DNA of 64,000 nucleotides, taken from the NCBI GenBank assembly GCA_938023085.1, contig CALHDP010000164.1, forward strand, positions 1,725 through 65,724, written 5' to 3'. A program made the translations under genes and the position numbers. Source of the DNA: an uncultured Collinsella sp. GTDB lineage: Bacteria > Actinomycetota > Coriobacteriia > Coriobacteriales > Coriobacteriaceae. Shown here piece after piece: positions 11,841-44,396 of this stretch (the first letter of the stretch is position 1; every line of letters starts with the position of its first letter). Under the pieces are notes generated by a model. It was not told the DNA's origin, did no database searches, and saw only the letters and a program-made list of their open reading frames with translations.

Positions 11841-13124
11841 ATGGCTGAAGAATTTGATTTCCATCCGATGTGGGAGAGCCTCGGCATGAATCTTGCCGAC
11901 CACGATATGCTGCTGGGCGCCGTGGGCCAGATGTACGGCGATATGTTCCTGACGCAGAACAATCGCCCCAAGTCCACGTCCTACCTGGACTTTGTGGCCA
12001 CCAACATCCACAGCGGCCGTATAAAGGAGATGCTCGACAAGAAGGAAGCCGGCGAGGCCACCAAGATCGTCGGTTCGTTCTGCGTCTATGTGCCCGAGGA
12101 GATTGTGCTCGCCTGCGACGGTATCCCCGTTGGTCTGTGCTCTGGTGCCGATTGGGCAACCGATAAGGTCGAGGAGCACCTGCCGCGCAACACCTGTCCG
12201 CTTATTAAGAGCTTTGCCGGCTTTAAGCTGGGCGAGGTCTGCCCCTACATCGAGTCGAGCGACCTGGTGGTAGGCGAGAACACCTGCGATGGCAAGAAGA
12301 AAGCCTACGAGTTCTTTGCAACGCAAAAGAACATGTACGTCATGGATATTCCCAACGTACACGACGAGTCGACGCTCGTGACCTGGAAGGCCGAGGTCAA
12401 GAAGCTCGCCGCCAAGATCGAGGACGAGTGCGACGTCAAGATTACGCCTGAGCGTCTGAAGGCCGCCATCCACGCCGTCAATGAGAAGCGTCGCGCCCTG
12501 CAGCGCCTCGCTGCCACGCGCGCTGCCGACCCGGCGCCCATCAGCGGTCTCGACAGCCTGCTGACCGTTCAGGCCGCCTTTATGGACGACACGCTGCGTC
12601 TGACCGGAGCCATTAACGATATGGCGGCTGAGTGCGAGCAGCGTGTCGAGGCCGGCGAGGGCGTGGCGCCCAAGGGGACCAAGCGCATCCTGTACACCGG
12701 TACGCCCATGGCCGTGCCCAACTGGAAGCTGTTCAACCTCATCGAGAAGGCCGGCGGCGTTGTGGTGGGCGAGGAGTCCTGCACGGGTTCGCGCTATTAC
12801 AAGGACTTGGTCGATGAGTCCGGTGAGACGGTTGCCGAGATGCTCGACGCCATCGCCGAGCGCTACTTTAAGATCAACTGCGCCGTCTTTACGCCCAACG
12901 ACCAGCGTATGAAGGACATTGTCCAGATGGCCAAGGACCTGCATGCCGACGGTATCGTCGACGTGGCCCTGCAGTTCTGCACGCTCTACGAGATGGAGTC
13001 GTTTGCCGTGGAGAAGGCCGCCGAAGAGGCCGGCATTCCGTTTATGCACATCACGACCGACTACGCCGGCGAGGATGCAGGCCAACTGCAAACCAGGATT
13101 GAGGCTTTCTTGGAAACCATTTAG
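11841..13124 (+). CDS. 2-hydroxyacyl-CoA dehydratase (HgdB)-family / double-cubane-cluster anaerobic reductase, paralog 1
   Basis: FCVYVPEE, GLC, NTCPLIKS, ENTCDGKKK, ESCTG, INCAVFTPN, QFC, GQLQTRIEAFLE. Confidence 0.85.
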   Translation: MAEEFDFHPMWESLGMNLADHDMLLGAVGQMYGDMFLTQNNRPKSTSYLDFVATNIHSGRIKEMLDKKEAGEATKIVGSFCVYVPEEIVLACDGIPVGLCSGADWATDKVEEHLPRNTCPLIKSFAGFKLGEVCPYIESSDLVVGENTCDGKKKAYEFFATQKNMYVMDIPNVHDESTLVTWKAEVKKLAAKIEDECDVKITPERLKAAIHAVNEKRRALQRLAATRAADPAPISGLDSLLTVQAAFMDDTLRLTGAINDMAAECEQRVEAGEGVAPKGTKRILYTGTPMAVPNWKLFNLIEKAGGVVVGEESCTGSRYYKDLVDESGETVAEMLDAIAERYFKINCAVFTPNDQRMKDIVQMAKDLHADGIVDVALQFCTLYEMESFAVEKAAEEAGIPFMHITTDYAGEDAGQLQTRIEAFLETI

Positions 13125-13139
13125 GACTATTCGTCCCGG

Positions 13140-13240
13140 CGGCTCCCCAGGCACCCGATCTTGCCGTTCAAACCGTCGCCTGCGAATCAAAGTACGCGGC
13201 GCTCCTCTTTCACGGCAACCTCGGGCACCTGGGAAAGCCG
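13140..13240. repeat. ~100-bp structured palindromic element, family B, copy 1
   Basis: Nested inverted repeats around core TCAAACCGTCGC...AAAGTACGC.GCGCTCCTCTTT, homologous to 14436-14544. Confidence 0.8.
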
Positions 13241-13277
13241 TTTCCTTGGTTGATTAAAAGGTTTGTTAAGGAGTTAT

Positions 13278-14441
13278 ATGTCGGAAAATATTGAGCAGCC
13301 GTTGCCGTCCACGTTTGAGGAGTTCAACGAGCAACGCAAGGCGGCGTTTATTCGCGTCAAGGATTACAAACAGGCCGGCAATCGCCTGGTCGGCTTTTTG
13401 TGCAGCTATACGCCGCTCGAGATTATCGATGCCGCGGGGGCTGCGAGCGTGGCGCTGTGCGGTACGTCCGATGAGGTGATTCCCGAGGCCGAGAAGGTGC
13501 TGCCGGCAAATCTTTGTCCGCTCATCAAGTCGACGTACGGTTTTGCCTATTCGCAAAAGTGCCCGTTTACGTACTTTAGCGACATGATCATCGGCGAGAC
13601 CACCTGTGACGGCAAGAAGAAGATGTACGAGCTACTCAACGAGCTCAAGCGTACGCACATTCTGCATCTTCCGCAGGGCCGCGACCGCGCCTACGAGCGC
13701 GAGGGCTGGTACGAGGAGTGCCGCCTGCTCAAGGAGGAGCTCGAGGGCTTCTACGGCATCACGATTACCGACGATGACCTGCGCGCTGCCGTCCGTCGTC
13801 GCAACCGCTTGCGTGCGGCCCAGCTCGAGATGTTTGCGCTGCAGGCCAACCAGCCGGCGGCCATGAGCGGCGTCGACCTGATGAGCACCATGTTTGCCGG
13901 TACGTTTAGTTTTGATATCGAGGCCTATACGCAGCAGCTGGAGCAAAAGGTTGCCAAGCTGCGCGAGGCCTACGACGCGGGCGAGCGCCCGGTTGCGGCG
14001 GATGCCAAGCGCATTCTGATCACCGGCTGCCCGGTGGGCGGTGTGATCAACAAGATCGGTCGCACCATCGAGTCCAACGGCGGCGTGGTCGTTTGCATGG
14101 ACGACTGCTCGGGCGAGCGTACGGCGGCCATGATGATCGACCCGGAGGCTCCCGACATCCTGCGCGCCATCGCCGACCGCTACCTGGATATCAACTGCTC
14201 GGTCATGACGCCCAACGACGGTCGTATGGACAACACCCTGGCCATGTGCGAGAAATACCACGTCGACGGTGTGGTGGAGAATGTGCTCCAGGCGTGCCAC
14301 ACCTTTAACGTGGAGAGTGCGCGCATGCAGGAGGCTGTCGAGGGTGCGGGTATTCCGTGCATGAAGATCGAGACCGATTACAGCAACGGCGACATGGGCC
14401 AGATCGAGACCAGCATCGCCGCCTTCATCGAAACCCTCTAG
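13278..14441 (+). CDS. Double-cubane-cluster anaerobic reductase (HgdB family), paralog 2
   Basis: LCSYTPLE, ALCG, NLCPLIKS, ETTCDGKKK, DDCSG, INCSVMTPN, QACHTF; AAGGAG RBS. Confidence 0.85.
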   Translation: MSENIEQPLPSTFEEFNEQRKAAFIRVKDYKQAGNRLVGFLCSYTPLEIIDAAGAASVALCGTSDEVIPEAEKVLPANLCPLIKSTYGFAYSQKCPFTYFSDMIIGETTCDGKKKMYELLNELKRTHILHLPQGRDRAYEREGWYEECRLLKEELEGFYGITITDDDLRAAVRRRNRLRAAQLEMFALQANQPAAMSGVDLMSTMFAGTFSFDIEAYTQQLEQKVAKLREAYDAGERPVAADAKRILITGCPVGGVINKIGRTIESNGGVVVCMDDCSGERTAAMMIDPEAPDILRAIADRYLDINCSVMTPNDGRMDNTLAMCEKYHVDGVVENVLQACHTFNVESARMQEAVEGAGIPCMKIETDYSNGDMGQIETSIAAFIETL

Positions 14442-14544
14442 CTTCCTCAGGCGCCGGATCTTGCTCCTCAAACCGTCGCTTGCGTACCCAAAGTACGCTG
14501 CGCTCCTCTTTCGGGGCAATCTCCGGCACCTGAGAAACCTAGAG
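14436..14544. repeat. Structured palindromic element, family B, copy 2
   Basis: Same core as 13140-13240 with compensatory stem changes. Confidence 0.8.
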
Positions 14545-14596: not shown

Positions 14597-15361
14597 ATGA
14601 TAGGGATCGGGATCGATATCGGGTCTACGGCGGCTAAGGCTGCTGTGGTCGACGGGGAGGGTTCGGTGGCGTGGACGTGCGTGCAGCCAACCGGGTTCTC
14701 CTCGGTCGATGCTTCCGAGCGGCTGCGCGAGGCACTGGTAGCGGCCGGCTATGACGTGACGGCCGAAGATGCTCGCGTGGTCGCGACTGGCTACGGCCGT
14801 GTTGCCGTGCCCTATGCGCACAAGGTCGTGACCGAGATCACCTGCCACGGCACCGGTGCCGTGCGTCTGTTTGGTGACCATGGCACCGTGATCGATGTGG
14901 GTGGTCAGGACACCAAGGTCATCCAGCTTAAAGGCGGCCGCGTGGCCAAATTTGCCATGAACGACAAGTGCGCCGCCGGCACGGGGCGCTTTTTGGAGAT
15001 CATGGCCGACCGCCTGGGCATTACCCAGCAGCAGATGGCAGACCTCGCCCGCACCGGCGAGCCTACCAAGATTTCCAGCATGTGCACGGTGTTTGCCGAA
15101 AGCGAGGTCATCAGCCTGATCGGTCGCGGCGAGCCGCGCGAGAACATTGCGCGTGGCGTGATCGACAGCGTGGTCTCGCGCGTGGCGACCATGGCCGGGC
15201 AGGCCGCGGGCGCTCCATACTACCTGACCGGTGGCCTGTGCGAGAATGCCTTCGTGGTGGAGCGGTTGGGCGAGCTACTGGGGTCGCCGGTGACCACCTC
15301 GCCCCAGGCTCGCTTTGCCGGTGCCATCGGCGCGGCGATTCGCGCCGCCGCCTTGGCCTAG
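14597..15361 (+). CDS. ATP-dependent [4Fe-4S] activase (HgdC/BadF ASKHA family; DCCP reductase-like)
   Basis: GIDIGST, ATGYGR, TEITCH, IDVGGQDTK, MNDKCAAGTGRFLE, SSMCTVFAESE. Confidence 0.92.
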   Translation: MIGIGIDIGSTAAKAAVVDGEGSVAWTCVQPTGFSSVDASERLREALVAAGYDVTAEDARVVATGYGRVAVPYAHKVVTEITCHGTGAVRLFGDHGTVIDVGGQDTKVIQLKGGRVAKFAMNDKCAAGTGRFLEIMADRLGITQQQMADLARTGEPTKISSMCTVFAESEVISLIGRGEPRENIARGVIDSVVSRVATMAGQAAGAPYYLTGGLCENAFVVERLGELLGSPVTTSPQARFAGAIGAAIRAAALA

Positions 15362-15375
15362 GGGTGTACCGCGAC

Positions 15376-16605
15376 ATGCGCATCCTCAATATCTCGGCAC
15401 AAAAACCAGATAGCACCGGCAGCGGCACCTACCTTGCCGCGCTCGTGCGCGAACAGATCGAGACGGGGCATCGCGCCGCCGTGCTTTGCGGCGCGGCTCC
15501 GGGTGATACCCAAGGCGAGCTGGACCGACGTGCTGCCGTGTTTGCCGTACCGTTCGAGTCGCCCGAGCTGCCGTTTCCCATCTGCGGTATGTCCGATGTC
15601 ATGCCCTATCCCTCTACACGCTATCGTGATCTGACGCCTTCGATGCTCAAGGCATTTGAGCGGGCATTTGCTGCTGCAATCGATCGGGCGGTGGCTGAGT
15701 TTCGGCCCGATCTGGTGCTCTGCCATCACCTGTATCTGGTGACCGCATTGGCGCGCGAGTGTGTCCGGGGCGTGCCGGTTGTTGCCGTGTGCCATTCGAC
15801 CGACCTGCGCCAGCTGCGTTCGCATGCGCTCGAGCGCGATCGCATCGTAAGTGCGGTTCGTCGGCTCGATGCCGTCTTTGCGCTCCATGCTGAGCAGGCT
15901 GAGCAGATTAGCCTGGTGTGCGGCGTCGATACCGATCGCATCCACGTGATTGGGACGGGCTACGACCATCGCGTCTTCTGTCGCGACGCAAGCGTGGCGA
16001 GGCAGCCGGGATCGCTTGTGTACGTGGGCAAGATTTGCTTTAAAAAGGGCGTCGAGTCGCTGGTTCGAGCCGTGTCATTGCCGATTGACGATGGCGTCCG
16101 CCCATCTGGCTTGGTACTTGTGGGCGGCCGCGGGGACGATGCCGAGTACGCGCGTATCGAGCGCTTGACCGCGGCCTCGGATGTGCCGGTGACGCTGGCG
16201 GGGCGCCTGGATAGCGATGAGCTCGTGCGTGCCTACCGCAGTTCCGACGTTTTTGTGCTGCCTTCGTTTTACGAGGGTCTGCCGCTCGTGACGATTGAGG
16301 CCCTCGCGTGCGGCTGCAAAGTTGTGGCGACCGATTTGCCCGGCGTTCGTCCCTGGATGGAGGCGATGCTTCCCGGTGCTCCCGTGACGTGGGTGGCGTC
16401 GCCGCGTATGACGGATGTCGACACGCCCGTGGCGGCCGACCTTCCGTTGTTTGAGCGCGCACTGGCAGATGCTATCGCGCAGGCGCTTGCGGCTCCGCCT
16501 TCGACGTTCGAGCCGTCGGCGGTCTCTTGGGAAGCGTGCCTGGCGCGTATACTTAAAGTCGTTGATTTGTTGGAAGGGAGGTTCGTATGGCTAAGGACAC
16601 CATGA
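15376..16605 (+). CDS. Glycosyltransferase family 4 (GT-B)
   Basis: YVGKI..KKG and DVFVLPSFYEGLPLVTIEALACG (EX7E motif); N-terminus MRILNISAQKPDSTGSG. Confidence 0.88.
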   Translation: MRILNISAQKPDSTGSGTYLAALVREQIETGHRAAVLCGAAPGDTQGELDRRAAVFAVPFESPELPFPICGMSDVMPYPSTRYRDLTPSMLKAFERAFAAAIDRAVAEFRPDLVLCHHLYLVTALARECVRGVPVVAVCHSTDLRQLRSHALERDRIVSAVRRLDAVFALHAEQAEQISLVCGVDTDRIHVIGTGYDHRVFCRDASVARQPGSLVYVGKICFKKGVESLVRAVSLPIDDGVRPSGLVLVGGRGDDAEYARIERLTAASDVPVTLAGRLDSDELVRAYRSSDVFVLPSFYEGLPLVTIEALACGCKVVATDLPGVRPWMEAMLPGAPVTWVASPRMTDVDTPVAADLPLFERALADAIAQALAAPPSTFEPSAVSWEACLARILKVVDLLEGRFVWLRTP

Positions 16606-17636
16606 GGCTCACGTCTATGACGGCCGCGAGCGGTTGAGCCGCTAAGTTGGCTCCCGGAGCCCTCGCCCAGGTCCTGGGCGATTTACCCAATGTGCATAAC
16701 GACAACTTGCTCGTGGGGTTCGATACCTCCGACGATGCGAGCGTCTTTCGCGTTGGCGATAACTTGGGTCTCGTGCAGTCCATCGTCTTCTTCCCGCCGA
16801 TGGTCGACGACCCGTTTCTATTTGGCCAGATTGCCGCGGCCAACTCGCTGTCGGACATCTACGCCATGGGCGGGCGGCCGAGCCATGCCATGAACCTGCT
16901 GTGCATTCCCAGTTGCCTGGGAGTTGAGGTTGCCGGCGAAATTCTGGCGGGCGGCGCCGACAAGTGCGTCGAGGCGGGTTGCTCCATCGCGGGCGGCCAC
17001 ACCATCAACGACGACGAGCCCAAGTACGGTCTGTCTGTGAGCGGTTTTGTGCCACTAGACCGTATGCTCGCCAACAGCGGCGCTCGCGTGGGCGATGCGT
17101 TGCTGCTGACCAAGGCGATCGGCTCGGGCATCATCACCACGGCCATTAAGGGCGATCTCATCGAGCAGGGCGAGGCTGGTCCGATGTTTGACTCGATGCG
17201 CTCCCTCAACGAAGCGCCGATTCGTCTGGCCGAGGGACTTGAGCTTCACGGCTGCACCGATGTCACGGGCTTTGGTCTGATCGGGCACGCGTGCGAGATG
17301 GCCGAGGGCTCGGGCGTGCAGGTTGAGCTTGCGTCGGGGGCGGTGCCGCTCTTTGATCAAGTGCTCGACATGGCGCGTCTGGGCATTATCCCCGCGGGCT
17401 CCTACCGCAACCAGGACTTCTTTGGCCCGCGCGTGGCTGCCGACGAGGATCTGGAGCCGGGCATGCTGGATGCGCTGTACGATCCGCAGACGTCTGGTGG
17501 CCTACTCATCGCGGCACCTGCTGCCGATGTTGATGAGCTTGCGTGCCGTCTACATGCTGAAGGACGTATCGCCGCCGTCGTCGGTCGCGTGTGCGTGCCG
17601 GTGCCAGGTGGTCCTGCCGTTCGCGTTGTCCGTTAA
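16587..17636 (+). CDS. selD: Selenophosphate synthetase (selenide, water dikinase); selenoprotein with Sec17 at UGA 16635-16637
   Basis: GGAGG RBS, ATG 16587, in frame SG-TGA-AAK (G-U-x-x-K) joining the ORF with DDASV, AANSLSDIYAMGG, GGHT, TDVTGFGL, DPQTSGGLL. Confidence 0.95.
16663..16681 (+). promoter_or_regulatory. Putative SECIS hairpin of selD
   Basis: TCGCCCAG-GTC-CTGGGCGA perfect 8-bp stem starting 26 nt after the UGA, GGUC at the apex. Confidence 0.65.
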
Positions 17637-17693: not shown

Positions 17694-18320
17694 ATGTCTA
17701 CCAAAATTGAAGTCAATGCCATGGGCGATGCCTGCCCGCTGCCCGTCGTCAAGACGCTTAAGGCACTCAAACAGCTTAATGGCGAGGGCGCCGTGGTGAC
17801 CTCGGTCGACAACGAGACCGCCGTCAAGAACATCTCCAAGATGGCACAGGAAAAGGGCTGCACGGCCTCGGTCGAGAAGGTTTCTGACGCCGAGTGGCAC
17901 GTGACCTTGGCGACCTCTGGCGCCGTTGCCGTTGCGGACCCCGAGCAGGATGGCGCTGCCTTCTGTGATGCCAGCGCCGGCAAGGGCAAGCTCGTCATTT
18001 CCGTCTACACCGATTGCATGGGCCGTGGCGACGACGAGCTGGGCCACAAGCTCATGAAGGCCTTCATCTTTGCCGTGACGCAGCAGGAGGAGCTGCCCGC
18101 GACCATGCTGTTCTACAACGGCGGCGCCAAGCTCACCGTCGAGGGCTCTCCGGTGCTCGACGACCTGAAGGGCCTGGCCGAGCAGGGCGTCGAGATCCTC
18201 ACCTGCGGCACCTGCCTCGATCACTATGGCATTAAGGACCAGCTGGCGGTGGGCGAGGTCACCAACATGTACGTGATCGTGGAGAAGATGGAGCAGGCCG
18301 TGCGCGTTGTGCGCCCGTAG
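17694..18320 (+). CDS. yedF: Sulfurtransferase-like selenium metabolism protein (TusA/SirA + DsrE domains)
   Basis: GDACPLPVVKT, MGRGDDELG..LM, FYNGG, TCGTCLDHY, GEVTNMY. Confidence 0.88.
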   Translation: MSTKIEVNAMGDACPLPVVKTLKALKQLNGEGAVVTSVDNETAVKNISKMAQEKGCTASVEKVSDAEWHVTLATSGAVAVADPEQDGAAFCDASAGKGKLVISVYTDCMGRGDDELGHKLMKAFIFAVTQQEELPATMLFYNGGAKLTVEGSPVLDDLKGLAEQGVEILTCGTCLDHYGIKDQLAVGEVTNMYVIVEKMEQAVRVVRP

Positions 18321-18339: not shown

Positions 18340-18591
18340 ATGAGGGAGAAGCGCCCGGCGCTTGTCATCACGTTTCCTACCACGGCGGCCGCCATGGGCT
18401 GCGAGTCCCTGTGCATCGAGCGCGGCCTTCCCGGGCGAACGATTCCCGTGCCCGGGGAGGTCGCTGCCGGCTGCGGTTTGGCATGGAAGGCACAGCCTTC
18501 GGATGAGGACCTGCTGCGCGGCGAGCTTGCCGCGGCGGGCGTTCCCACTGAGGGCTTTACGGTGATCGACATGTGGGAGGTCGTGCGATGA
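18340..18591 (+). CDS. DUF3343 family protein (selenium-cluster associated)
   Basis: ITFPTTAAAM..E, GRTIPVPGEVAAGCGLAW; ATGA overlap with next gene. Confidence 0.78.
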   Translation: MREKRPALVITFPTTAAAMGCESLCIERGLPGRTIPVPGEVAAGCGLAWKAQPSDEDLLRGELAAAGVPTEGFTVIDMWEVVR

Positions 18592-19727
18592 TCTACCTGG
18601 ATAACGCGGCGACGACTATGCATAAGCCGCAAACGGTCATCGATGCCGTGACCCAGGCGATGTGCTCGCTCGGCAATGCCGGACGCGGCGCGACGTCGGG
18701 TGCGCTCGATGCGGCGCGTACCATCCACGGCTGTCGCGCCAAGCTTGCGCGCTTGCTGGGCTGCCCGCGGGCCGATCATGTTTGTTTTACGCCCAACTCC
18801 ACCGCGGCGCTCAATACCGTCATCAATGGCGTGGTGCGCCCCGGCGACCGCGTGGTCACGACGGTGCTCGAGCACAACTCCGTGCTGCGTCCGCTCAACC
18901 GCCTGGCGGCAGAGCAGGGCGTGACCGTTGAGCATGCGGGCTGCGACGCGAACGGCGTGCTCGACTACGACGAGCTCGAGCGGTTGGTCGCGCCGGGTAC
19001 TCGTGCCGTGGTGGTGACGCACGCCTCCAATGTGACCGGCAACGCGGTTGACGTTTCGCGTGTGGCGGCCATGGCCCATGCTGCCGGCGCGCTTGTGATC
19101 GTTGACGCCTCTCAGTCTGCCGGCACGGCGCATATCGATATGCAGGCCATGGGGCTCGACGTGGTGTGCTTTACTGGCCACAAGGGGTTCATGGGTCCGC
19201 AGGGCACCGGCGGGCTGGCCGTGGCGGAGGGCATTGACGTGGCGCCGTGGGCCATGGGCGGCACGGGCGTGCACAGCTTCGATGCACTGCAGCCGCTTGA
19301 GTGGCCCACGCGCCTTGAGGCGGGCACGCTCAACGGTCACGGCATCGCGGGACTTTCCGCAGGTCTCGACTTTATCGAGGCGCAAGGCGGGGTCGAGGCG
19401 ATCGCGGCGCATGAGCGAGCACTGGCGGATCGCTTTCTCGCTGGCGTGCGCGAAATCCCGGAGATCAAGCTCTACGGTGCCTTTGACCAGCCGTCGCGCT
19501 CGGCGATCGTCTCACTCAACGTGGGTGATATCGACTCTGCCGAGATCTCGGACGCACTCATGCAAGGGTGGGGGATTGCGACGCGCCCCGGCGCCCATTG
19601 CGCCCCGCTCATGCACCGTGCGCTGGGGACCGAGCGTCAGGGCGTCGTCCGCTTCTCGTTTGGGTATTTCAACACGGACGAGGAAGTCGATACCGCGATT
19701 GACGCTTTGCGCGATTTAGCCTGCTAG
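18588..19727 (+). CDS. Class V PLP aminotransferase: cysteine desulfurase / selenocysteine lyase
   Basis: IYLDNAATT, EHNSV, HASNVTG, DASQSAG, FTGHKG, EAGT, RPGAHCAP, VRFSFG. Confidence 0.9.
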   Translation: MIYLDNAATTMHKPQTVIDAVTQAMCSLGNAGRGATSGALDAARTIHGCRAKLARLLGCPRADHVCFTPNSTAALNTVINGVVRPGDRVVTTVLEHNSVLRPLNRLAAEQGVTVEHAGCDANGVLDYDELERLVAPGTRAVVVTHASNVTGNAVDVSRVAAMAHAAGALVIVDASQSAGTAHIDMQAMGLDVVCFTGHKGFMGPQGTGGLAVAEGIDVAPWAMGGTGVHSFDALQPLEWPTRLEAGTLNGHGIAGLSAGLDFIEAQGGVEAIAAHERALADRFLAGVREIPEIKLYGAFDQPSRSAIVSLNVGDIDSAEISDALMQGWGIATRPGAHCAPLMHRALGTERQGVVRFSFGYFNTDEEVDTAIDALRDLAC

Positions 19728-19741
19728 AGCGTATATACTTG

Positions 19742-19775
19742 CGGGACGGGTCTTTTGCCCGTCCCGTTTTTGTTT
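19742..19775 (+). terminator. Intrinsic terminator closing the reductase-selD-desulfurase unit
   Basis: CGGGACGGG-tcttttg-CCCGTCCCG followed by TTTTTGTTT. Confidence 0.7.
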
Positions 19776-21788: not shown

Positions 21789-22244
21789 TTAGTGGCGACC
21801 GTGGTGGCGGAGCTTGTCGATAGTGGAGTCGGTGCTTCGGCTGCGGGCGTCGGCGGCGGTTTGGCGCTGGCGGCGGTAGTCGATCATGCCTTGGATGATG
21901 GGCTTGCCAAAGCTCACGACGTCGTCGTTATAGATGGCGGTTCGGGCTGCGAGGAGGCAGTCGGTAAAGTCCATATGGGTCTTGCCAAAGAGTTTGATGG
22001 CAAGGGCGATAACGGTGGGCTCGTCGACCATGACGTCATCGAGCAGCTTGGACATGGCCGTCGCAATCTCCACGCGCGGGACCTTGTAGACGTCGCGCAG
22101 CGTGACCACGACGCGCGTGATGATTTCGGGGTAGACACGAGCGGTGCGTGTGGCGATGACCTTGGCAGCGCGCGGCGACAGGACCTCGTCGTCGTTAAGC
22201 AGGTAGCGCAGGATGACGGTCTCGTCGATGATGGTGCTACTCAT
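21789..22244 (-). CDS. PIN-domain (VapC-like) toxin
   Basis: IIDETVILRYLLND and MDFTDCLLAA acidic PIN motifs; overlaps upstream antitoxin gene. Confidence 0.75.
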   Translation of the reverse strand: MSSTIIDETVILRYLLNDDEVLSPRAAKVIATRTARVYPEIITRVVVTLRDVYKVPRVEIATAMSKLLDDVMVDEPTVIALAIKLFGKTHMDFTDCLLAARTAIYNDDVVSFGKPIIQGMIDYRRQRQTAADARSRSTDSTIDKLRHHGRH

Positions 22245-22560
22245 GGATATCTACTTCCTCGGGACCCAAAACCGACTCGTCGCTTTCTGTGGCTAGGTAT
22301 TCAATCCAGGCATTGCGCTCCTTGGAGCGGCGATTGGGGTCCCCATATGCTTTGAGCAATCCATAGGCGGCGGTGCCGTCCTTTGAGCGCACGGCAACCG
22401 GTTGAAAGGGGAGCTTGCGCATCAAAATACTCTGCGCGACAAATAGACGGACAGCCTCGGCGAGCGATGTGCCCATAGCGTCGTAGAGACGCTCGGCATG
22501 CTGCTTGTCTTCCTCGCGAATGCGCACCTGCAGGATGGCTCGTTTTTGAGTCGATGACAT
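22237..22560 (-). CDS. RelB/DinJ-family antitoxin
   Basis: LQVRIREEDKQHAERLYDAMGTSLAEAVRLFVAQSILMRKLPF, RHH-type RelB pattern. Confidence 0.8.
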   Translation of the reverse strand: MSSTQKRAILQVRIREEDKQHAERLYDAMGTSLAEAVRLFVAQSILMRKLPFQPVAVRSKDGTAAYGLLKAYGDPNRRSKERNAWIEYLATESDESVLGPEEVDIHE

Positions 22561-22988
22561 CACTGGCCTCCCTTAATGAGCGTGCAATATGAATAGTCAA
22601 ATACAGCATTAGCTGATAATAACCAATCTTATAACCACTACTTTATTGCACTCAAGTTAATGAGCGCGAAATATATATCAAACGTATTACATCCTTTATA
22701 AACGAGCGTGAAATCTCCCTTGGATGTACGCATGTAATACACTCACCTTTATAGCTTCTAGAGAATAATTCCAACCTGCCAAAACCCCTGCAATACACCC
22801 GTATTGCAGGGCCTATGCTCAAGTTTGCCACCTGCAACTGCGTATATTTAACCTGTATATCGTTGGAGAAACTCTATCGAGTGCCTGTTTCGCCGCATGT
22901 ACTCGATACGTCGATGCCAGGCCACGGGCGGCTTGGGTCAATGTCGACAGGGTCTCTCCGGCATGGGATTCAGGAGGGAGTGAACAAC

Positions 22989-23507: not shown

Positions 23508-23583
23508 GCGGGCGGCCATACAGGCCCAATGATTGTCAAATAAGTACCGATTAATCGGTAGCAGAGAAAGGAAGGAGGGTGTC

Positions 23584-25806
23584 ATGGAGAAGCATAAAGT
23601 GATCTGCCCGTACTGCGGCGCCGGTTGCCAGTTTAACCTCCTGGTCCAAAACGGCCAGGTCGTGGGCACCGAACCGCTCAACGGCATCACCAACCAGAGC
23701 GAGCTGTGCCTTAAGGGCATGAGCGGCTACGACTTCATCAACGACACCAAGATCTTGACTCCTCGCGTACTGCACCCGATGATCCGCCGCACTAAGGGCG
23801 CGGATCTTGAGCGCGTAAGCTGGGACGAGGCACTGAATTTCACCGCATCTAAGATGCAGGCCATAATTGACGAATATGGTCCTAACGCTGTCATGACCAC
23901 CGGCTCTTCGCGAGGCGGCGGCAATGAGGCGAACTACGTCATGCAGAAGTTTACGCGTGCGTGCATCGGCACCCACAGCGTGGACAACTGCGCCCGTACT
24001 TGACACGGCCCTACTGTCCTCGGTCTGATGGACACGGTTGGTTCAGGTTGCATGTCATGCTCCATCCCCGGTATGGAGGATGCGGGCTGCATTTTCCTCT
24101 TCGGCTATAACCCTGCCGATTCGCACCCCATCGTCGCAAGGCGTATCGTGCGAGCCAAAGAAAAGGGTTGCAAGATCATCGTCGCCGACCCGCGCCATAT
24201 CGAAACTGCGCGTATCGCCGATATCTACCTTCCGATCAAGAACGGTTGCAACGTTGCGTTCCTCAACGCCTTTGCCAACTGCTTGGTCAACGATGGCCTC
24301 TACGACAAGGAATTCGTCGCCGAGCACACGAACGGCTTTGACGAATGGTGGGAGACCATCAAGAACTACACTCCCGAATCCGTACAGGACATCACGGGTG
24401 TCGAGCCCGCGTTGATCCACCAAGCTGCCGAGATGTACGCCACGGCGAAGCCCTCTGCCATCATTGGCTGGGGTATGGGCGTATGCCAGCAGAAGCAGAA
24501 CCTGAAGACGGTGCACACCATCGCCTCCATCGCCTGCGTTGCCGGCCAGATCGGCAAACCCAACTCCGGCCTCGCGCCCGTGCGCGGTCAGAATAACGTC
24601 CAGGGCTCCTGCGATATGGGCATGCTGCCCAACCTGTACCCTGGCTACCAGAAAGTCACCGACCCCGCAGTGCGTGCCAAGTTTGCCAAAGCTTGGGGCG
24701 TGCCCGAGGAAAAGCTCCCGCTCGAGGAGGGCTACAAGCTCACCGATCTGGGCCACCTGGTCGACGAGGGCAAGGTGCACTGCTTCTACAACTACGGCGA
24801 GGACCCGGTGCAGACCGAGCCCGATTCGGCCGGTATGCGCAAGACGCTCTCCGAGCTGGATCTGTTCATTTGCCAGGACATCTTTATGACGCAGACGACC
24901 ATGCTCGCCGACGTCATCCTGCCCGCTACCTCTTGGGGCGAGCACGAGGGTGTCTTTACCGCATCCGACCGTAGCTTCCAGCACTTTGACGCGGCCGTTC
25001 CGCCCAAGGGCGAGTGCCGCCACGACTGGGAGATCTTCGCGGACCTGTCCACGCGCATGGGCTACCCCATGCACTACGACAACACCGAGCAGATCTGGAA
25101 CGAGTGCATTAGCCTGTGCCCCAACTTTGTGGGCGCGACCTACGAGAAGATGGCTCCCGAGGGCGGTTACGCCCAGTGGCCGGTCAAGAGCACCGATGTG
25201 AACGACCACGGTACGCCCGACATGTTCGCTGGTGGCAAGTTCACCACCAAGGACGGCCGCGCCAACCTGATGGCGCACGACTGGGAGGCGCCCTCCGAGC
25301 TTCCCGACGATGAGTACCCGCTCATTCTGTGCACCGTCCGCGAGGTCGGCCACTACAGCTGCCGTTCGATGACCGGCAACTGCAAGACGCTGGCGCTGCT
25401 TGCCGATGAGCCCGGTTTTGTCCGCATGAATCCCGCGGACGCCCAGGCGCGCGGCATCAAGAACGGCGACATCGTCTCGATTCACAGCCGCCGCGGTCAG
25501 GTATACAGCCGCGCCGACGTGAGCGACCGTATCAACAAGGGCACGGTCTATATGACCTACCAGTGGTGGATTGGCAAGTGCAACGAGCTGACCATGCACA
25601 AGGTCGACCCGGTCTCGCACACGCCCGAGGACAAGTTCTCCGCCTGCCAGGTCGACGCTATCGCCGACCAGGTCTGGGCCGAGGGCGAGGTCGAGCGTCA
25701 GTACACCGAGCTCAAGCAGGCTCTGGTGGATGCCGCCGCTCCCCAAGACGTTGAGCCCGGCGCCGCCAAGTTCGACGACGAGGCGCACGTGAACCAAATC
25801 GTGTAG
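23584..25806 (+). CDS. fdhF: Formate dehydrogenase H alpha subunit (Mo-bisPGD), selenoprotein with Sec140 at UGA 24001-24003; 740 aa
   Basis: Two in-frame ORFs joined at DNCART-TGA-HGP; CPYCGAGC..LCLKG, RGQNNVQG, LPATSWGEHEGVFT. Confidence 0.95.
24015..24034 (+). promoter_or_regulatory. Putative SECIS hairpin of fdhF
   Basis: TGTCC-TCGGTCTGAT-GGACA starting 11 nt after the UGA, same position and GGUCU apex as the E. coli fdhF SECIS. Confidence 0.7.
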
Positions 25807-38398: not shown

Positions 38399-38558
38399 TA
38401 AGCCGGAATGACGTACGGGCCTCCCGAGGGGCGTTTGCCTTTTGGGAGGCTCTTCGTGTCTTGCTGCGGTGGATGCTGCGGGCTTTGCGTCGCGGCAGCT
38501 GGTGGCAGAACTGTGGTGCGGTGGGGCTTGGACCCCTGAGATGGAAGGAATAATCGAG

Positions 38559-40676
38559 ATGGCATCGAGAGCTATGCATGACGGTCGCTCCGTGGTGACG
38601 ACATGCGGGGGATGCTATGCCGATTGCGCCTTTGCGGCACGCGTTGAGGACGGTCGCGTGGTGGCCGAGTTGCCGGTGCCGGGGCATCCGTGCGCGGCGC
38701 GTGCCCTGTGCGCCCGCGGGCGGCATCGCCTGGACATGCCGTTTGACGAGCACGACCGGATTTTGCACCCCATGCGTCGCCGAGCTAATGGCTCGGGGTT
38801 CGATGCGATTACCTGGGACGAGGCGTTTGACCAGATTGCCGAGCGTCTTTTGGGGATTGTTGACGAGCGCGGGGCCCGTGCGCTGGGCATGACGCTCGGC
38901 GTGCCCTCGTTCGACCGTTACTGGGCGTATCGCTTTATGCATACGCTGGGTTCACCCAACGTATACGGTGCCGACGGCGCCTGCGAGGTAAGCCGACTTA
39001 CCGGTTGGGAGCACAGCCTGGGCTATAGTCCCGCCTCCGACCTGGCGCACACCGATTGCATCATGTATCTGGGGCGTTCCATTGTCGATTCGTCGACGAT
39101 GGGGGCCGTTGATGCGCTCAACGATGCGCGTCGCCGTGGGGCGAAGATTATCGTGGTTGACCCCCGGCGCAGTGGCTCGGCTGCTTTTGCCGATCGCTGG
39201 CTCCGCGTGCGCCCGGGCTGCGACTTGGCGCTGCTGTTGGGTATTGTCCACGTGCTGATTGTCGAGGACCTATACGACCACGACTTTGTGGCCCGCTATA
39301 CCACGGGTTTTGATGAGCTGGCGCAGGCGGCTGGCGCTTGGACGCCCGAGTGGGCCGAGTCCATGTGCGACGTGCCGGCCGCAGAGATTGTCGCCACGGC
39401 GCGCGATCTCGCATCCGTCGCGCCTGCCGCCGTGGTGGATGCGGGCTTTCATGGTGGCATCGGTATCGCGTATGCCAATAGCACCCAGACCGCGCGTGCT
39501 ATCTGCTTGGTCGATGTGCTGCTGGGCTGCATCGGACACGCGGGCGGTGCCCTCAATCCACCCGCGCCGCTTGTGTTGGGCGACCTCGATCCCGCACGCT
39601 TTGCGACGCCGCCGGTGCCGCGCGGGCCCAAGCTAGGGTCCGAGCGCTATCCACTGGTCGATCCGGTGCGCGGCCTGTGCACGACCATCGGTCAGTCGAT
39701 TCTTGCCGGCGATTTGCGTGGGCTCATTGTCTATGCCAGTAACCCCGGTGCGGGCTATGGCAATGCACAGGCTTGGTTGAGTATTTTGCAGCAGCTCGAC
39801 TTGCTTGTGACGATTGATATTCGCTGGTCCGAGACGGCGCGCGCTTCTGACTTCGTGTTGCCCGACGTGACGTATCTGGAGGCCGACCGCGGTGTGGGCG
39901 CAGTCGTGGGCGCCAATGATTCGCGCGTGTTCTACCGCAACGCCGTGCTGCCCATTTTGCATGACGACACGAGGCCGGGGCGGGAGATCTTTGCCGGTTT
40001 GGCGCAGGCGTGCGGCGTGGGCGAGTACTTCCGGTTTACATCCGACGATCTGGCGGCTGCCCAGGTGGCACCGTTTGGGATTGATCTGGACGAGCTCAAG
40101 GAACGCGGCTGGGCCGACACGGGTGTTGCGTTGCCGTTGCGTACGGGCGAGCCGGCGATTCCCTTGGACGGCGGCAAAATTGCGCTGGCAAGCGACGTAT
40201 GGGAACGAGCCGGCCTGGGCCGCGTTCCCGGTTGGGTTGCGCCCATGGTGGAGCCCGGTCCGGGAATGTTTCGCCTCATTAGCGGCAACCGTCCCTTTGA
40301 GTCGCATACCTCGCGAAGGCTTGCGGCCCAAGGTGCCGCCGAGGCTGGATCGGACCTGGATGCTGTGCAGATGAATGCCGATGTTGCTGCGCACATGGGC
40401 ATCGCCGACGGCGAGATCGTCGAGCTCGTGAGCGATATGGGCCGCGACCGCGTGCGCGTGGAGACGACGCCGTATCTGCATCCGGCGTGTATCTTTACGT
40501 CGGCCGCCCCCGGCGGACGTTCGTTTGGCGCCGATGCCGGCGGCGCTCAAGCCTTGGGCGTCGGCCCGCTCGACCATACACCGTTGCGTTGGGACCCGTT
40601 GACGGGCGCCGCGCTCACTCAGGAAAACGCCGTTCGCGTGGAAAAGATCGCGGCGCGCGAGGATAATAACGAGTAA
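38559..40676 (+). CDS. Molybdopterin (bis-PGD) oxidoreductase catalytic subunit, DMSO-reductase superfamily, substrate unknown
   Basis: TTCGGCYADC..LCARG 4Fe-4S motif, ITWDEA, VVDPRRS, RPGCDLAL, SETARASDFVLPD; no Tat signal; start uncertain. Confidence 0.85.
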   Translation: MASRAMHDGRSVVTTCGGCYADCAFAARVEDGRVVAELPVPGHPCAARALCARGRHRLDMPFDEHDRILHPMRRRANGSGFDAITWDEAFDQIAERLLGIVDERGARALGMTLGVPSFDRYWAYRFMHTLGSPNVYGADGACEVSRLTGWEHSLGYSPASDLAHTDCIMYLGRSIVDSSTMGAVDALNDARRRGAKIIVVDPRRSGSAAFADRWLRVRPGCDLALLLGIVHVLIVEDLYDHDFVARYTTGFDELAQAAGAWTPEWAESMCDVPAAEIVATARDLASVAPAAVVDAGFHGGIGIAYANSTQTARAICLVDVLLGCIGHAGGALNPPAPLVLGDLDPARFATPPVPRGPKLGSERYPLVDPVRGLCTTIGQSILAGDLRGLIVYASNPGAGYGNAQAWLSILQQLDLLVTIDIRWSETARASDFVLPDVTYLEADRGVGAVVGANDSRVFYRNAVLPILHDDTRPGREIFAGLAQACGVGEYFRFTSDDLAAAQVAPFGIDLDELKERGWADTGVALPLRTGEPAIPLDGGKIALASDVWERAGLGRVPGWVAPMVEPGPGMFRLISGNRPFESHTSRRLAAQGAAEAGSDLDAVQMNADVAAHMGIADGEIVELVSDMGRDRVRVETTPYLHPACIFTSAAPGGRSFGADAGGAQALGVGPLDHTPLRWDPLTGAALTQENAVRVEKIAAREDNNE

Positions 40677-40728: not shown

Positions 40729-42186
40729 ATGAGCGATAGCCAGAACATGTCCGATGAGGTGCGCGCCCGCCTGCGCGCCATTCCCTCCGTCAACGAGCTG
40801 CTCGCAGAGTGGCCGGTTGTGAAGGCGGCGAGGGAGACCTGCGACGCGGTGGTGCATGCCGCCGTCACGGCCGAGCTCGCCGAGCAGCGCGCCGCCATTC
40901 GTGCCGGTGCCGCCCCGCGTTCCAAGCGCGACCTGGCCTCGGCCATCGAGTGGCGTGCGCATCGCTCTGCGCTGCCGAGCCTGCGCCCAGCAGTTAATGC
41001 CACGGGCGTGGTCATCCATACCAACTTGGGCCGCGCCCCGCTCGCGGAGTCGGCGGCAAAGGCAGTGGCCGAGGTCGCGCGCGGGTACAGCACGCTCGAG
41101 TACTGCGTCGACACCTGCTCGCGTGGGTCGCGCAAGGAACATGCCGCGCAGCTGATCCGCTCGCTTACCGGTGCCGAGGACGCGCTGGTCGTTAACAACA
41201 ACGCCGCCGCTGTGCTGCTGGTGCTGGCGACCCATGCCGCAGGCAAAGAGGTCATCGTCAGCCGCGGCGAGCTTGTCGAGATCGGCGGCAGTTTCCGCAT
41301 CCCCGATGTCATGGCGGCCTCGGGCGCCAAACTCGTCGAGGTCGGCGCCACCAACCGCACGCACCTGGCTGATTATGAGCAAGCCATCACGCCCGATACG
41401 GCGATGATCCTTAAGGTCCATCCTTCCAACTATCGCATCGAGGGTTTTCACGAGGAGGTGGGTTCTCGGGAGCTTGCGGCGCTTGCTCACAAGCACGGCC
41501 TGCTGTTCTACGAGGACCAGGGCTCGGGCGCGCTATTGCCTGACGACATCCTGGTTCGTGGCGGCGAGGAAACCACGCCGGCTTCGGTTTCTGCAGGGCT
41601 CGATCTGGTGTCGTGCTCGGGCGATAAACTGCTCGGTGCCGCACAGGCGGGCATTATCATGGGCCGTCGCGATCTGGTCCAGGCCTGTGGGTCGCATCCG
41701 CTTATGCGCGCCCTGCGCCCGGGCAAGCTCGCACTGGCGGCGCTCGAGGCTACACTGCGCATCTACATGGATGGGGCGGATGTGGCCCATCGCGAGGTGC
41801 CGGTGCTCAACATGCTCACGCTTCCGCAGGCTCATCTGGAGCGTCGCGCACGCAAGCTGCGCGAGCTGATGGTGACGGGCCTCGATAAGGCGGGTTGCCC
41901 GTGCGCCGTGCAGGTGGAGATCGTCGAGGAGTCGTCGACTCCCGGCGGCGGCTCGCTGCCTACCGTCGAGCTGCCCACGATGTGCGTTGCCGTGCGTCTT
42001 GTTGACGCGCGCCTGACGGTCGATGCGCTCAAGCGCTCGCTTGTCCAGGACTTCGACACGCCGGTCGTCACGCGAACCTCGCACGATCGCATTTTGTTTG
42101 ACGTCCGTACGCTCGTGGGCGACCGCGATATCGAGACGGCGGCGTCGACGCTCGTCGCGTGCGTTGAGAGGGCGATTGCTCGATGA
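40729..42186 (+). CDS. selA: L-seryl-tRNA(Sec) selenium transferase
   Basis: NATGVVIHTNLGRA, VNNNAAAV, SRGELVEIGGSFRIPDVM, SGDKLLG. Confidence 0.96.
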   Translation: MSDSQNMSDEVRARLRAIPSVNELLAEWPVVKAARETCDAVVHAAVTAELAEQRAAIRAGAAPRSKRDLASAIEWRAHRSALPSLRPAVNATGVVIHTNLGRAPLAESAAKAVAEVARGYSTLEYCVDTCSRGSRKEHAAQLIRSLTGAEDALVVNNNAAAVLLVLATHAAGKEVIVSRGELVEIGGSFRIPDVMAASGAKLVEVGATNRTHLADYEQAITPDTAMILKVHPSNYRIEGFHEEVGSRELAALAHKHGLLFYEDQGSGALLPDDILVRGGEETTPASVSAGLDLVSCSGDKLLGAAQAGIIMGRRDLVQACGSHPLMRALRPGKLALAALEATLRIYMDGADVAHREVPVLNMLTLPQAHLERRARKLRELMVTGLDKAGCPCAVQVEIVEESSTPGGGSLPTVELPTMCVAVRLVDARLTVDALKRSLVQDFDTPVVTRTSHDRILFDVRTLVGDRDIETAASTLVACVERAIAR

Positions 42187-44150
42187 GTGAGGTTCAGGCG
42201 CTGGTGGAGTGCCCCGTTATCGTTGGCACGGCGGGTCACGTTGACCATGGTAAGTCGGCACTGATCGAGGCACTGACTGGCAAGAATCCCGATCGTCTGG
42301 AGGTTGAGCGCCGTCGCGGTATGACCGTGGAGCTGGGCTTTGGCGAGCTGGCGCTGCCGAGTGGCAAGATCGTTGGCCTGGTCGACGTGCCGGGCCACGC
42401 GCATTACTTGCGCGCCATGGTGCAGGGCGCCACGGGCATCGACGTGGCCGTGCTGGTGGTTTCGGCCGTCGAGGGCGTGATGCCGCAGACGCGCGAGCAC
42501 GTGCACGTGCTGGAGCTGCTGGGCGTCACGCATATGGTGGTCGCGCTGACGATGTGCGACCTGGCTGATGCCGAGATGACCGAGCTTGCCGAGCTTGATG
42601 TCGATGACTTTTTGTCGGGTACCGTGTTTGCAGGCGCGCCGATCGTGCCCGTGTCGTCCAAGACCGGCGAGGGGATTGATGCGCTGCTGGCAGCGCTCGA
42701 CGAGTGCGTGGACGCCTGTTGGGCTGCCTGTCGCGATCGCGCCGAGCGAACCGACGCTGCGCCGCGCCTGCCGATCGATCGCTGTTTTACGATCAAGGGT
42801 GCCGGCACCGTCGTGACGGGTACACTGCACGACGCGCCGGTTGCGGTGGGCGATGAGCTGGTCGCGCTGCCGTCGCGCACGGTCTGTCGCGTCCGCGGGA
42901 TTCAAGTGCATGGCGACACGCAGCAGGCGCTGCCCGGTCAGCGCGTGGCGCTCAATTTAGTGGGCGATGGTGTCGCCGCGCTCGATCGCGGTGAGATGCT
43001 GGGCGTGGCGGACCGCTTTGGTCAGACGTTGCGCTTTATGATGACGTTCACCTACCTGGGGCGCGAGGGCGCCAAGCCGCGCGTGCTCGAGTCGGGCGCG
43101 CGTGTGCATGTGATGGCCGGCACGGCCGAGGTCGTCGGCCGCATCATGCTTTTGGAGGGCGAGGCCCCCATGGCGGTGGGCGAGACCCGTACCGTGCAGG
43201 TGCGCCTGGATGATCCGCTGCCGCTGCGTGCCGGAGACCGTGCTGTGGTGCTGTCGTATTCGCCCGTTATGCTCATCGGCGGCGGGCGCGTGCTGCTATC
43301 GCGCTGCCGTCGCTCGCGCGAGCTTTCTGCCGGCGAGCGCGCACTGTTTGCGGCGCTTGAGTCCGGTGATATCGCGGGCGGTGTGGGCGCTTGGCTGGCG
43401 CTGCAGATGCTGCCGGTTACGGCGGTTGATGTCGCCGAGGCTTTGGATCTTGGTGTCGGCGAGGTCGATGCCGCGCTGCGCGGGTTGGTGGCGCAGGGCG
43501 CTGCTTGCGCGCTTGCAGGCTCGGATGGCTCGCTGTATGCAGATTCTTCTGCGCTCGACGCCGCGATGGATGCACTGGCGGCGACCCTGTCGGCCATGCA
43601 CACGGCGGCTCCCAAGGAGACGGGCTTTACGCCCGGCGCCGTTGCCCATGCTGCGTGGCCTGCCGTTGATGAAGGCGTTGCCGCGGCTCTGATTGCCGAG
43701 GGCTGCTCCCGTGGCGTGTGCGCCGCCGAGGGCGCCGAGGTATTCGACCCGCATTCGGCCGCCGCGGCGGCACGCGTGGTGCGAGAGGCTTGCGAGCGGA
43801 TCGTCGCGCTGCTTGACGAGGCCGGCCTGGATGCGCCAGCGCTTCCCGAGGTGGGCGAACAGCTGCAGCTTGGCCGCGACACTATGACGCGTGCCCTGCG
43901 CGAGCTTTCGCTCAACCGCTCGATCGTTAAGGTCGAGCGCGACGTTGCCCTGTCTGCTGCCGCCGAGGCCCATGCGCGTGAGCTTGTTGCCGCCGCCATT
44001 GAGGCAGCCGGCGGCGCTGCCACCACGAGCGTACTGCGCGAGGCCCTGGGTGTGTCGCGCAAACGCGCCATCAGCATCTTGGAGCACCTGGATGCCGTGC
44101 GCTTTACGGTGCTCGACAAGGACGCCGGCGGCCTGAGGTCCCTGCGCTAG
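42183..44150 (+). CDS. selB: Selenocysteine-specific translation elongation factor
   Basis: GTAGHVDHGKS, RGMTVELGF, DVPGH, IDRCFTIKGAGTVVTGT, C-terminal winged helix LGVSRKRAISILEHLD. Confidence 0.95.
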   Translation: MSEVQALVECPVIVGTAGHVDHGKSALIEALTGKNPDRLEVERRRGMTVELGFGELALPSGKIVGLVDVPGHAHYLRAMVQGATGIDVAVLVVSAVEGVMPQTREHVHVLELLGVTHMVVALTMCDLADAEMTELAELDVDDFLSGTVFAGAPIVPVSSKTGEGIDALLAALDECVDACWAACRDRAERTDAAPRLPIDRCFTIKGAGTVVTGTLHDAPVAVGDELVALPSRTVCRVRGIQVHGDTQQALPGQRVALNLVGDGVAALDRGEMLGVADRFGQTLRFMMTFTYLGREGAKPRVLESGARVHVMAGTAEVVGRIMLLEGEAPMAVGETRTVQVRLDDPLPLRAGDRAVVLSYSPVMLIGGGRVLLSRCRRSRELSAGERALFAALESGDIAGGVGAWLALQMLPVTAVDVAEALDLGVGEVDAALRGLVAQGAACALAGSDGSLYADSSALDAAMDALAATLSAMHTAAPKETGFTPGAVAHAAWPAVDEGVAAALIAEGCSRGVCAAEGAEVFDPHSAAAAARVVREACERIVALLDEAGLDAPALPEVGEQLQLGRDTMTRALRELSLNRSIVKVERDVALSAAAEAHARELVAAAIEAAGGAATTSVLREALGVSRKRAISILEHLDAVRFTVLDKDAGGLRSLR

Positions 44151-44175
44151 GCCGGTCACTCGCTCCCGCCTCCTC

Positions 44176-44242
44176 AGTTGCGGTGAAATAGTTCCTATTT
44201 GGAGGCTTTGGCAGCAAATACAGGAACTATTCCACCGCAACT
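44176..44242. repeat. 67-bp palindromic element, family A, copy 2
   Basis: AGTTGCGGTGAAATAGTTCCT...AGGAACTATTCCACCGCAACT. Confidence 0.85.
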
Positions 44243-44299
44243 TCTTGTTCGTCTTTTTGGGATGGAGCCGTTTCGGTTTGGTAAAATACCGCCGCACTT

Positions 44300-44396
44300 G
44301 GGAACGGATGGGCTCCGGTGGGCTCCGCGGTCCTCAAAACCGTTGCGAGGCGTGCAAAACGTCTTGGATGTGTTCGATTCACATACGTTCCCGCCA
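44300..44396 (+). tRNA. selC: tRNA-Sec(TCA)
   Basis: Long acceptor stem, 6-bp D stem with CGGT loop, TCA anticodon at 44334-44336, 8-bp variable arm, T arm ATGTG-TTCGATT-CACAT, G discriminator plus CCA; directly after selAB. Confidence 0.93.

Follow-up and report, generated by a model that had tools for sequence, protein, structure and literature searches.

In a 64,000-nucleotide stretch of DNA from an uncultured Collinsella sp. (contig CALHDP010000164.1; hereafter the window), a glycosyltransferase gene of the GT4 family (15376..16605, + strand) runs into the 5' end of selD, the gene for selenophosphate synthetase. We find that its product, referred to here as GT4, belongs to a real, SelD-linked, uncharacterised subfamily that is defined by its motifs and distinct within the GT4 family, and that probably performs an unrecognised step of selenium (Se) handling in anaerobes. 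Its GT-B fold, catalytic signature, subfamily status and genome-level dependence on SelD are established, while its acceptor is what we infer. An initial annotation of this DNA had proposed that GT4 might be a selenosugar synthase like SenB, the glycosyltransferase of selenoneine biosynthesis.

The GT4 open reading frame (ORF) is intact and encodes a soluble 45-kDa protein of 409 amino acids (aa) matching PF00534, PF13439 and PF13692. A two-Rossmann GT-B fold (PF00534 plus PF13439) is supported by an AlphaFold2 model (predicted local distance difference test, pLDDT, of 96) and by fold searches. Alignment of 115 subfamily members revealed 22 invariant columns, many of them in the acceptor domain (Q9, T14-G-S-G, G71-M-S, M76-P-Y, H118 and H140), and the subfamily motifs are Q9xPxxT14GSG, G71MSDxMPY78, H117-H118, H140xTxLR145Q146, G218K219xxxxK224G and E300x7E308. 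The signature of retaining GT4s, E-x7-E plus an N-domain His, is present (E300 in 114/115 members, E308 and H140 in 115/115 each), with H140 aligning to the catalytic His of GlgM; judged from sequence, the mechanism is probably retaining. In genome searches scores exceeded 390 bits for subfamily members, were 183-189 for a sister group and stayed below 126 for generic GT4s, and 374 clusters (50% identity) were retrieved with the window protein at E<=1e-30. Members of named origin belong to Coriobacteriia, to many Clostridia (C. difficile among them), to Halarcobacter and to Cloacimonetes, and Atlas adds clusters from Thermodesulfobacteriota. Absence of the subfamily from all 120 other Campylobacterota sampled suggests that Halarcobacter acquired it by transfer; in that genome (G311), a double-cubane gene adjoins selD (C83:5818-8387) and GT4 lies elsewhere. 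DUF6873 genes are found 3' of GT4 in several Peptostreptococcaceae-like loci (L056, L057, L060, L154-L156), two proteins (P0242, P0255) are GT4-DUF6873 fusions, and other fusions carry GGACT or Gfo/Idh/MocA domains.

The retaining GT4s GlgM (6TVP), BshA (3MBO, 6D9T), MshA (3C4Q) and sucrose-phosphate synthase (6KIH) are only 17-23% identical to GT4 and have no counterpart of the subfamily loop. They usually carry an Arg at the position of Lys219, and we know of no link between any of them and SelD. Scores against the BshA and MshA models remain far below threshold (TIGR03999, 35.5 bits for a cut-off of 273.7; TIGR03449, 47.5 for a cut-off of 462.5). The Leishmania major "sucrose-phosphate synthase-like protein" (8VRF, 8UAG, 9DCM) and the clostridial sister group (G372, G353) have other residues in place of the GMSDxMPY loop, FPCFTTHP in the sister group. 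The sister genes are flanked on one side by the gene of a ~400-aa protein that fits no known family and on the other by that of a protein with a cNMP-binding domain (L140:6406-10582, L141:393-4559).

The distribution of the subfamily follows that of SelD. Among 349 evenly sampled clostridial genomes (centre G302 included), of which just the 66 with selD were searched for selA, all 19 GT4 carriers possess both selD and selA, against backgrounds of 66/349 and 52/349, respectively. The 19 carriers form 8 clusters at 50% identity; the chance of selD occurring in all 8 (0.19^8, ~2e-6) is a fairer measure of the association than the Fisher value of 9e-15. As controls in the same genomes, generic GT4 matches (107-126 bits) fell in selD genomes in 3/12 cases and sister-group matches (183-189 bits) in 1/2; the sister group is not SelD-restricted. 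The pattern is not accounted for by physical hitchhiking, as selD is unlinked to GT4 in all 19 carriers, as judged within the flanking DNA fetched, where some contigs end early; a gene resembling selenocysteine (Sec) lyase lies nearby in one of them. Further carriers have selD in 46 of 48 genome handles (47 distinct genomes, as G326 duplicates G228). The two selD-less carriers are G246, which has a frameshifted GT4 and lacks selA, selU and yqeB, and G331, a 1.9-Mb genome of unreported completeness. Among Coriobacteriaceae, selD is present in 33/33 carriers versus 124/151 genomes overall. Together, these counts bear out the co-occurrence with selD that the initial annotation had proposed to examine, and place the subfamily with the SelD-associated accessory genes that are found almost only in selD genomes.

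Linkage to other sel genes varies by lineage. In Coriobacteriales outside Collinsella's family, GT4 is carried by 9/14 selA-positive versus 2/31 selA-negative genomes; in non-Collinsella Coriobacteriales it lies among selA/selB in 9/11 loci, with selD in 8, in a shuffled gene order (selD-GT-selA-selB-yedF for example). A count over 37 non-Collinsella GT4 loci gave sel genes in 8. One genome, G155, carries an intact GT4 within a yedF-yqeB-molybdenum (Mo) cofactor cluster, together with a Cys-type SelD and YqeB and without SelA or SelU, and so points to SelD rather than Sec proteins as the shared requirement of carriers. GT4 is nonetheless an accessory to selenium use: among same-genus genomes it is present in 32/121 while selD is present in 112/121, and three GT-less genomes that were inspected have the same operon minus GT4, which is transcribed in a GT-less strain. 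Similarly, 33/52 selA-positive Clostridia are without GT4, and it is absent from the whole sample of 105 other Coriobacteriia, of which 98 are selA-positive. Double-cubane proteins occur in 17/19 clostridial carriers versus 17/33 selA-positive non-carriers, and are therefore enriched but not required.

At the GT4/selD junction (16576..16605, + strand), the GT4 stop codon (TGA 16603-16605) lies inside the selD 5' end, as initially annotated. The selD start is most likely the ATG at 16587-16589 because it follows the ribosome-binding site GGGAGG (16576-16581) by 5 nucleotides (nt), and the overlap in the window is therefore 19 nt. It had also been suggested that an ATGA shared with selD Met6 reflects translational coupling. 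The ATGA (16602-16605) is indeed located at codon 6 of selD, but it is created by one extra A at 16579 that is present in only 3/30 same-genus loci. In 26 of the 27 A-less loci, those for which the junction was printed, GT4 has 405 aa and shares an 8-nt ATGGCTRA overlap with selD Met1; this allele is also seen in a public contig. Codon 6 itself is ATG in 20 loci, ATT in 7, GTG in 2 and ATA in 1, and a 67%-identical GT4 allele (L037) likewise ends in an 8-nt overlap, by a frame count made by hand. Since 27/30 loci use this other junction, it is the overlap with selD that is conserved, and the ATGA/Met6 arrangement is a strain quirk. Inside the 3' end of GT4, a TATACT box (16548..16553, + strand) is a candidate -10 element and may be an internal selD promoter; in a comparison covering L031-L033, L037 and L038 the box also precedes selD in three loci that lack GT4, and a consensus scan made no call at it. 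If real, such a promoter would lessen the need for translational coupling between the two genes.

SenB, according to the available part of 10.1101/2022.04.13.486033, is a GT-B enzyme that uses selenophosphate and was itself found through the logic of selD overlap. Its structures (PDB 8FBX, 8JJQ, 8K5U) and GT4 have in common the GT-B fold, the E-x7-E motif, a C-domain Lys and the overlap with selD. The comparison by hidden Markov model (HMM) and structure envisaged in the initial annotation nevertheless rules out GT4 being SenB: the score against TIGR04348 is 22.4 bits (residues 204-324 only) for a cut-off of 300, SenB reaches only rank 30 by structure, and an invariant His stands in place of Thr83. 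With SenB numbering transferred from SenB homologues using the accessible portion of PMC10891094, two pocket residues are kept by hhalign (His58 as H118, Thr85 as T142), three are changed (T83 to the invariant H140, R61 to L121, R155 to S/A/C221), and N20, outside the aligned range, corresponds by eye to S16. The selenophosphate pocket N20/H58/R61/T83/T85/R155 is thus absent as a set, as column counts also indicate. At the EGGAHV motif and Lys158 of SenB, E300/E308 and K224 do align, but the motif in GT4 reads EGLPLV and these residues are general to GT4s. Furthermore, while selD adjoins GT4 as in a senA-senB-senC cassette, no EgtB/SenA homologue is seen in the operon proteins or recurring neighbours; the absence of a SenA/EgtB-like gene noted initially holds for the 14 operon-region proteins scanned, the genome not having been searched for EgtB. 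GT4 is therefore not a SenB; that it works like one is plausible.

Our preferred reading, held at just under even confidence, is that GT4 is an accessory, probably retaining enzyme making a selenosugar from selenophosphate or selenide. A hexose or N-acetylhexosamine would be transferred from a nucleoside diphosphate sugar, held by K219/K224 and E300/E308, onto the Se of selenophosphate or, alternatively, onto selenide that the Sec-lyase-like enzyme, YedF and DUF3343 supply. The invariant Q9/T14-G-S-G, GMSDxMPY, H118 and R145/Q146 would make up the pocket for the acceptor. Because H140, the His of retaining GT4s that is replaced by Thr83 in SenB, is kept, a front-face (SNi, internal nucleophilic substitution) route would probably lead to an alpha-linked selenosugar, in contrast to the beta product of SenB. 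The absence of a SenA-like gene nearby and the patchy distribution among selenium users make it likelier that the product serves to store, buffer or detoxify reduced selenium than that it is a selenoneine precursor, and the function would be convergent with that of SenB, not descended from it. A selenosugar is favoured because the product of SelD is a small, strong nucleophile, because SenB provides a precedent, and because the partner enzymes that a longer pathway would need do not recur. Two points weigh against this: the nearest structures are of enzymes that use hydroxyl groups as acceptors, and GT4 does not reproduce the SenB pocket. Slightly more tentative is the fuller proposal that GT4 represents a second, independently evolved selenosugar synthase, retaining, which would use selenophosphate to form a selenoglycoside with an alpha linkage in anaerobes, common gut bacteria and C. 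difficile among them.

In C. difficile, the orthologue of GT4 is CDR20291_0773 (cdr0773), identified because two published deletion-primer stretches (from the supplement rows seen of PMC11898633) match just upstream of GT4 in L143, whose GT4 shares 95% identity with C. difficile P0404. Deletion of cdr0773 yields a viable strain with an unchanged glycolipid profile, as reported in the available text of PMC11761805, which rules out a glycolipid GT4 of the UgtA/UgtB or BgsA/LafB type for this orthologue. GT4 itself scores 31.6 bits against the glycolipid glycosyltransferase model NF053513, for a cut-off of 460.

These results bear on other explanations of the link to SelD. That GT4 catalyses a BshA/MshA-like first step, O-glycosylating a small anionic or phosphorylated acceptor to give the scaffold of a low-molecular-weight thiol/selenol carrier to which Se is added later by other enzymes, is unlikely but deserves weight. 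Against it, the acceptor of a GT4 cannot be read from its structural ranking within the family, and the clustered neighbours include no recurring gene for a deacetylase or a cysteine-ligase-like enzyme, whole genomes not having been searched for them. A little less probable still is that GT4 serves Se-dependent anaerobic physiology without contacting Se, glycosylating for example a pterin, or some metabolite connected with Mo/Se enzymes or with double-cubane reductases. Against this, where GT4 is clustered its neighbours are mostly genes of Se activation (selD, selA, selB, yedF) and not moa, and carriers without a double-cubane protein include the complete genome G181 as well as G155, G167, G394, G431 and G333.

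We regard as improbable that GT4 protectively caps another selenol, be it free selenocysteine, a YedF/DUF3343 perselenide or the Sec of a selenoprotein, since GT4 is intact in G155, which lacks selA, and no single selenoprotein is shown to be common to the carriers, among which only SelD was checked. An ordinary GT4 of cell-envelope or storage carbohydrate that hitchhikes with selD would account for its being dispensable (absent from 89/121 same-genus genomes), for its GC content at third codon positions (0.69, below the 0.74-0.85 of its neighbours) and for the cell-wall-binding protein gene that follows one orthologue (L143). This is very improbable, and already largely disfavoured, given the co-occurrence in 19/19 carriers where GT4 is unlinked to selD and, from the available text of PMC11761805, the unaltered glycolipids of the cdr0773 deletion. 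The initial annotation had set against its own proposal that homologues might lie mostly in selD-less genomes or envelope loci; instead, carriers are nearly all selD-positive, and the annotated neighbours include no polysaccharide-type locus.

In the window, GT4 is part of a same-strand (+) string of genes. Upstream are two double-cubane (8Fe-9S) cluster proteins (11841..13124 and 13263..14441; each 489 bits against NF040772, cut-off 350) and an ATP-dependent activator of the BcrAD/BadFG family (14597..15361; TIGR00241, PF01869). GT4 is followed by selD (16587..17636; TIGR00476, 329 bits, cut-off 125), with Sec17 encoded by TGA 16635-16637 and only a weak hairpin downstream of that codon (z -1.67), and by yedF, for a sulfurtransferase-like selenium metabolism protein (17694..18320; TIGR03527, 215 bits, cut-off 110). 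The string then continues with DUF3343, a putative Se/S carrier (18340..18591; PF11823), and a pyridoxal phosphate enzyme resembling cysteine desulfurase/selenocysteine lyase (18588..19727; above cut-off for TIGR01977, and 354 bits against NF040779 SclA, below its cut-off of 525). An intrinsic-terminator-like hairpin (19741..19767, + strand), a consensus match only, comes after this last gene, and RNA depth runs on past it. The genes selA, selB and tRNA-Sec (40729-44396) lie ~24 kb from selD, directly downstream of a molybdopterin oxidoreductase gene (38442-40676) whose best match is PhsA-like and below cut-off; yqeB is on a different contig of the same genome.

Other features of the region were also recorded. 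On the intergenic segments 13146-13190 and 14458-14517, many RNA reads match over only part of their length and have loose ends, which suggests a palindromic repeat scattered through the genome. Some Collinsella-like loci (L037:1119-6639, L039, L072, L093, L118) have several kb between the double-cubane genes, including ABC ATPase genes in L037 and L039, an insert that the window lacks. Other Coriobacteriaceae (L034-L036, L041, L042) have a different selD cluster (yedF, Sec-lyase-like gene, DUF3343 and a selD without TGA), in which no GT4 is found, and selA is absent in all three tested. Beyond the operon, after tRNA-Pro/Gly, a small gene pair (21789-22563, - strand) is, as we take it from the look of the sequence, a RelB-like antitoxin and a PIN-domain protein, the latter apparently frameshifted in L031. 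An FdhF-like formate dehydrogenase gene (23533-25806) with an in-frame TGA (24001-24003, DNCART*HGP) encodes a selenoprotein and lies upstream of a hydrogenase/formate-hydrogenlyase-like cluster.

The evidence linking GT4 to selenium includes shared operons and a SelD profile, the same type of evidence as for YedF, DUF3343, YedE and LysR_Se in the available part of PMC5322559 and for double-cubane proteins in that of 10.1101/2022.07.06.499078, neither of which, to that extent, proposes GT4 as a selenium gene. The former contains one uncommented mention, "Shel_25140 (glycosyltransferase)" of Slackia at STRING rank 6 for YedE, whose membership in the subfamily is unchecked; the latter covers the link between double-cubane proteins and SelD, and "glycosyl" is absent from its main text as available. 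Our literature search found no paper assigning the subfamily a selenium role. New here are the unlinked, genome-wide SelD profile, the His/Thr83 contrast and the link to an existing C. difficile mutant.

Enzymes of the SenA/EgtB type require oxygen. By the count given in the available text of PMC10702425, four enzymes specifically form C-Se bonds, and the small-molecule route covered in that text has the EgtB homologue SenA as its last enzyme. The question is tractable, as an assay for SenB is published, GT4 is soluble and a viable cdr0773 deletion mutant exists; even with a negative selenium assay, a new family so tightly linked to SelD would still need explaining. If the fuller proposal of a second selenosugar synthase is true, GT4 would represent an oxygen-independent trait of selenium storage or small-molecule selenol formation, alongside Sec, selenouridine, the Se-Mo cofactor and selenoneine. 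For anaerobes of the gut and the environment, a glycosyltransferase family that depends on SelD would point to one more way of using selenium, perhaps with a new selenometabolite, and would bear on how gut bacteria hold dietary selenium.
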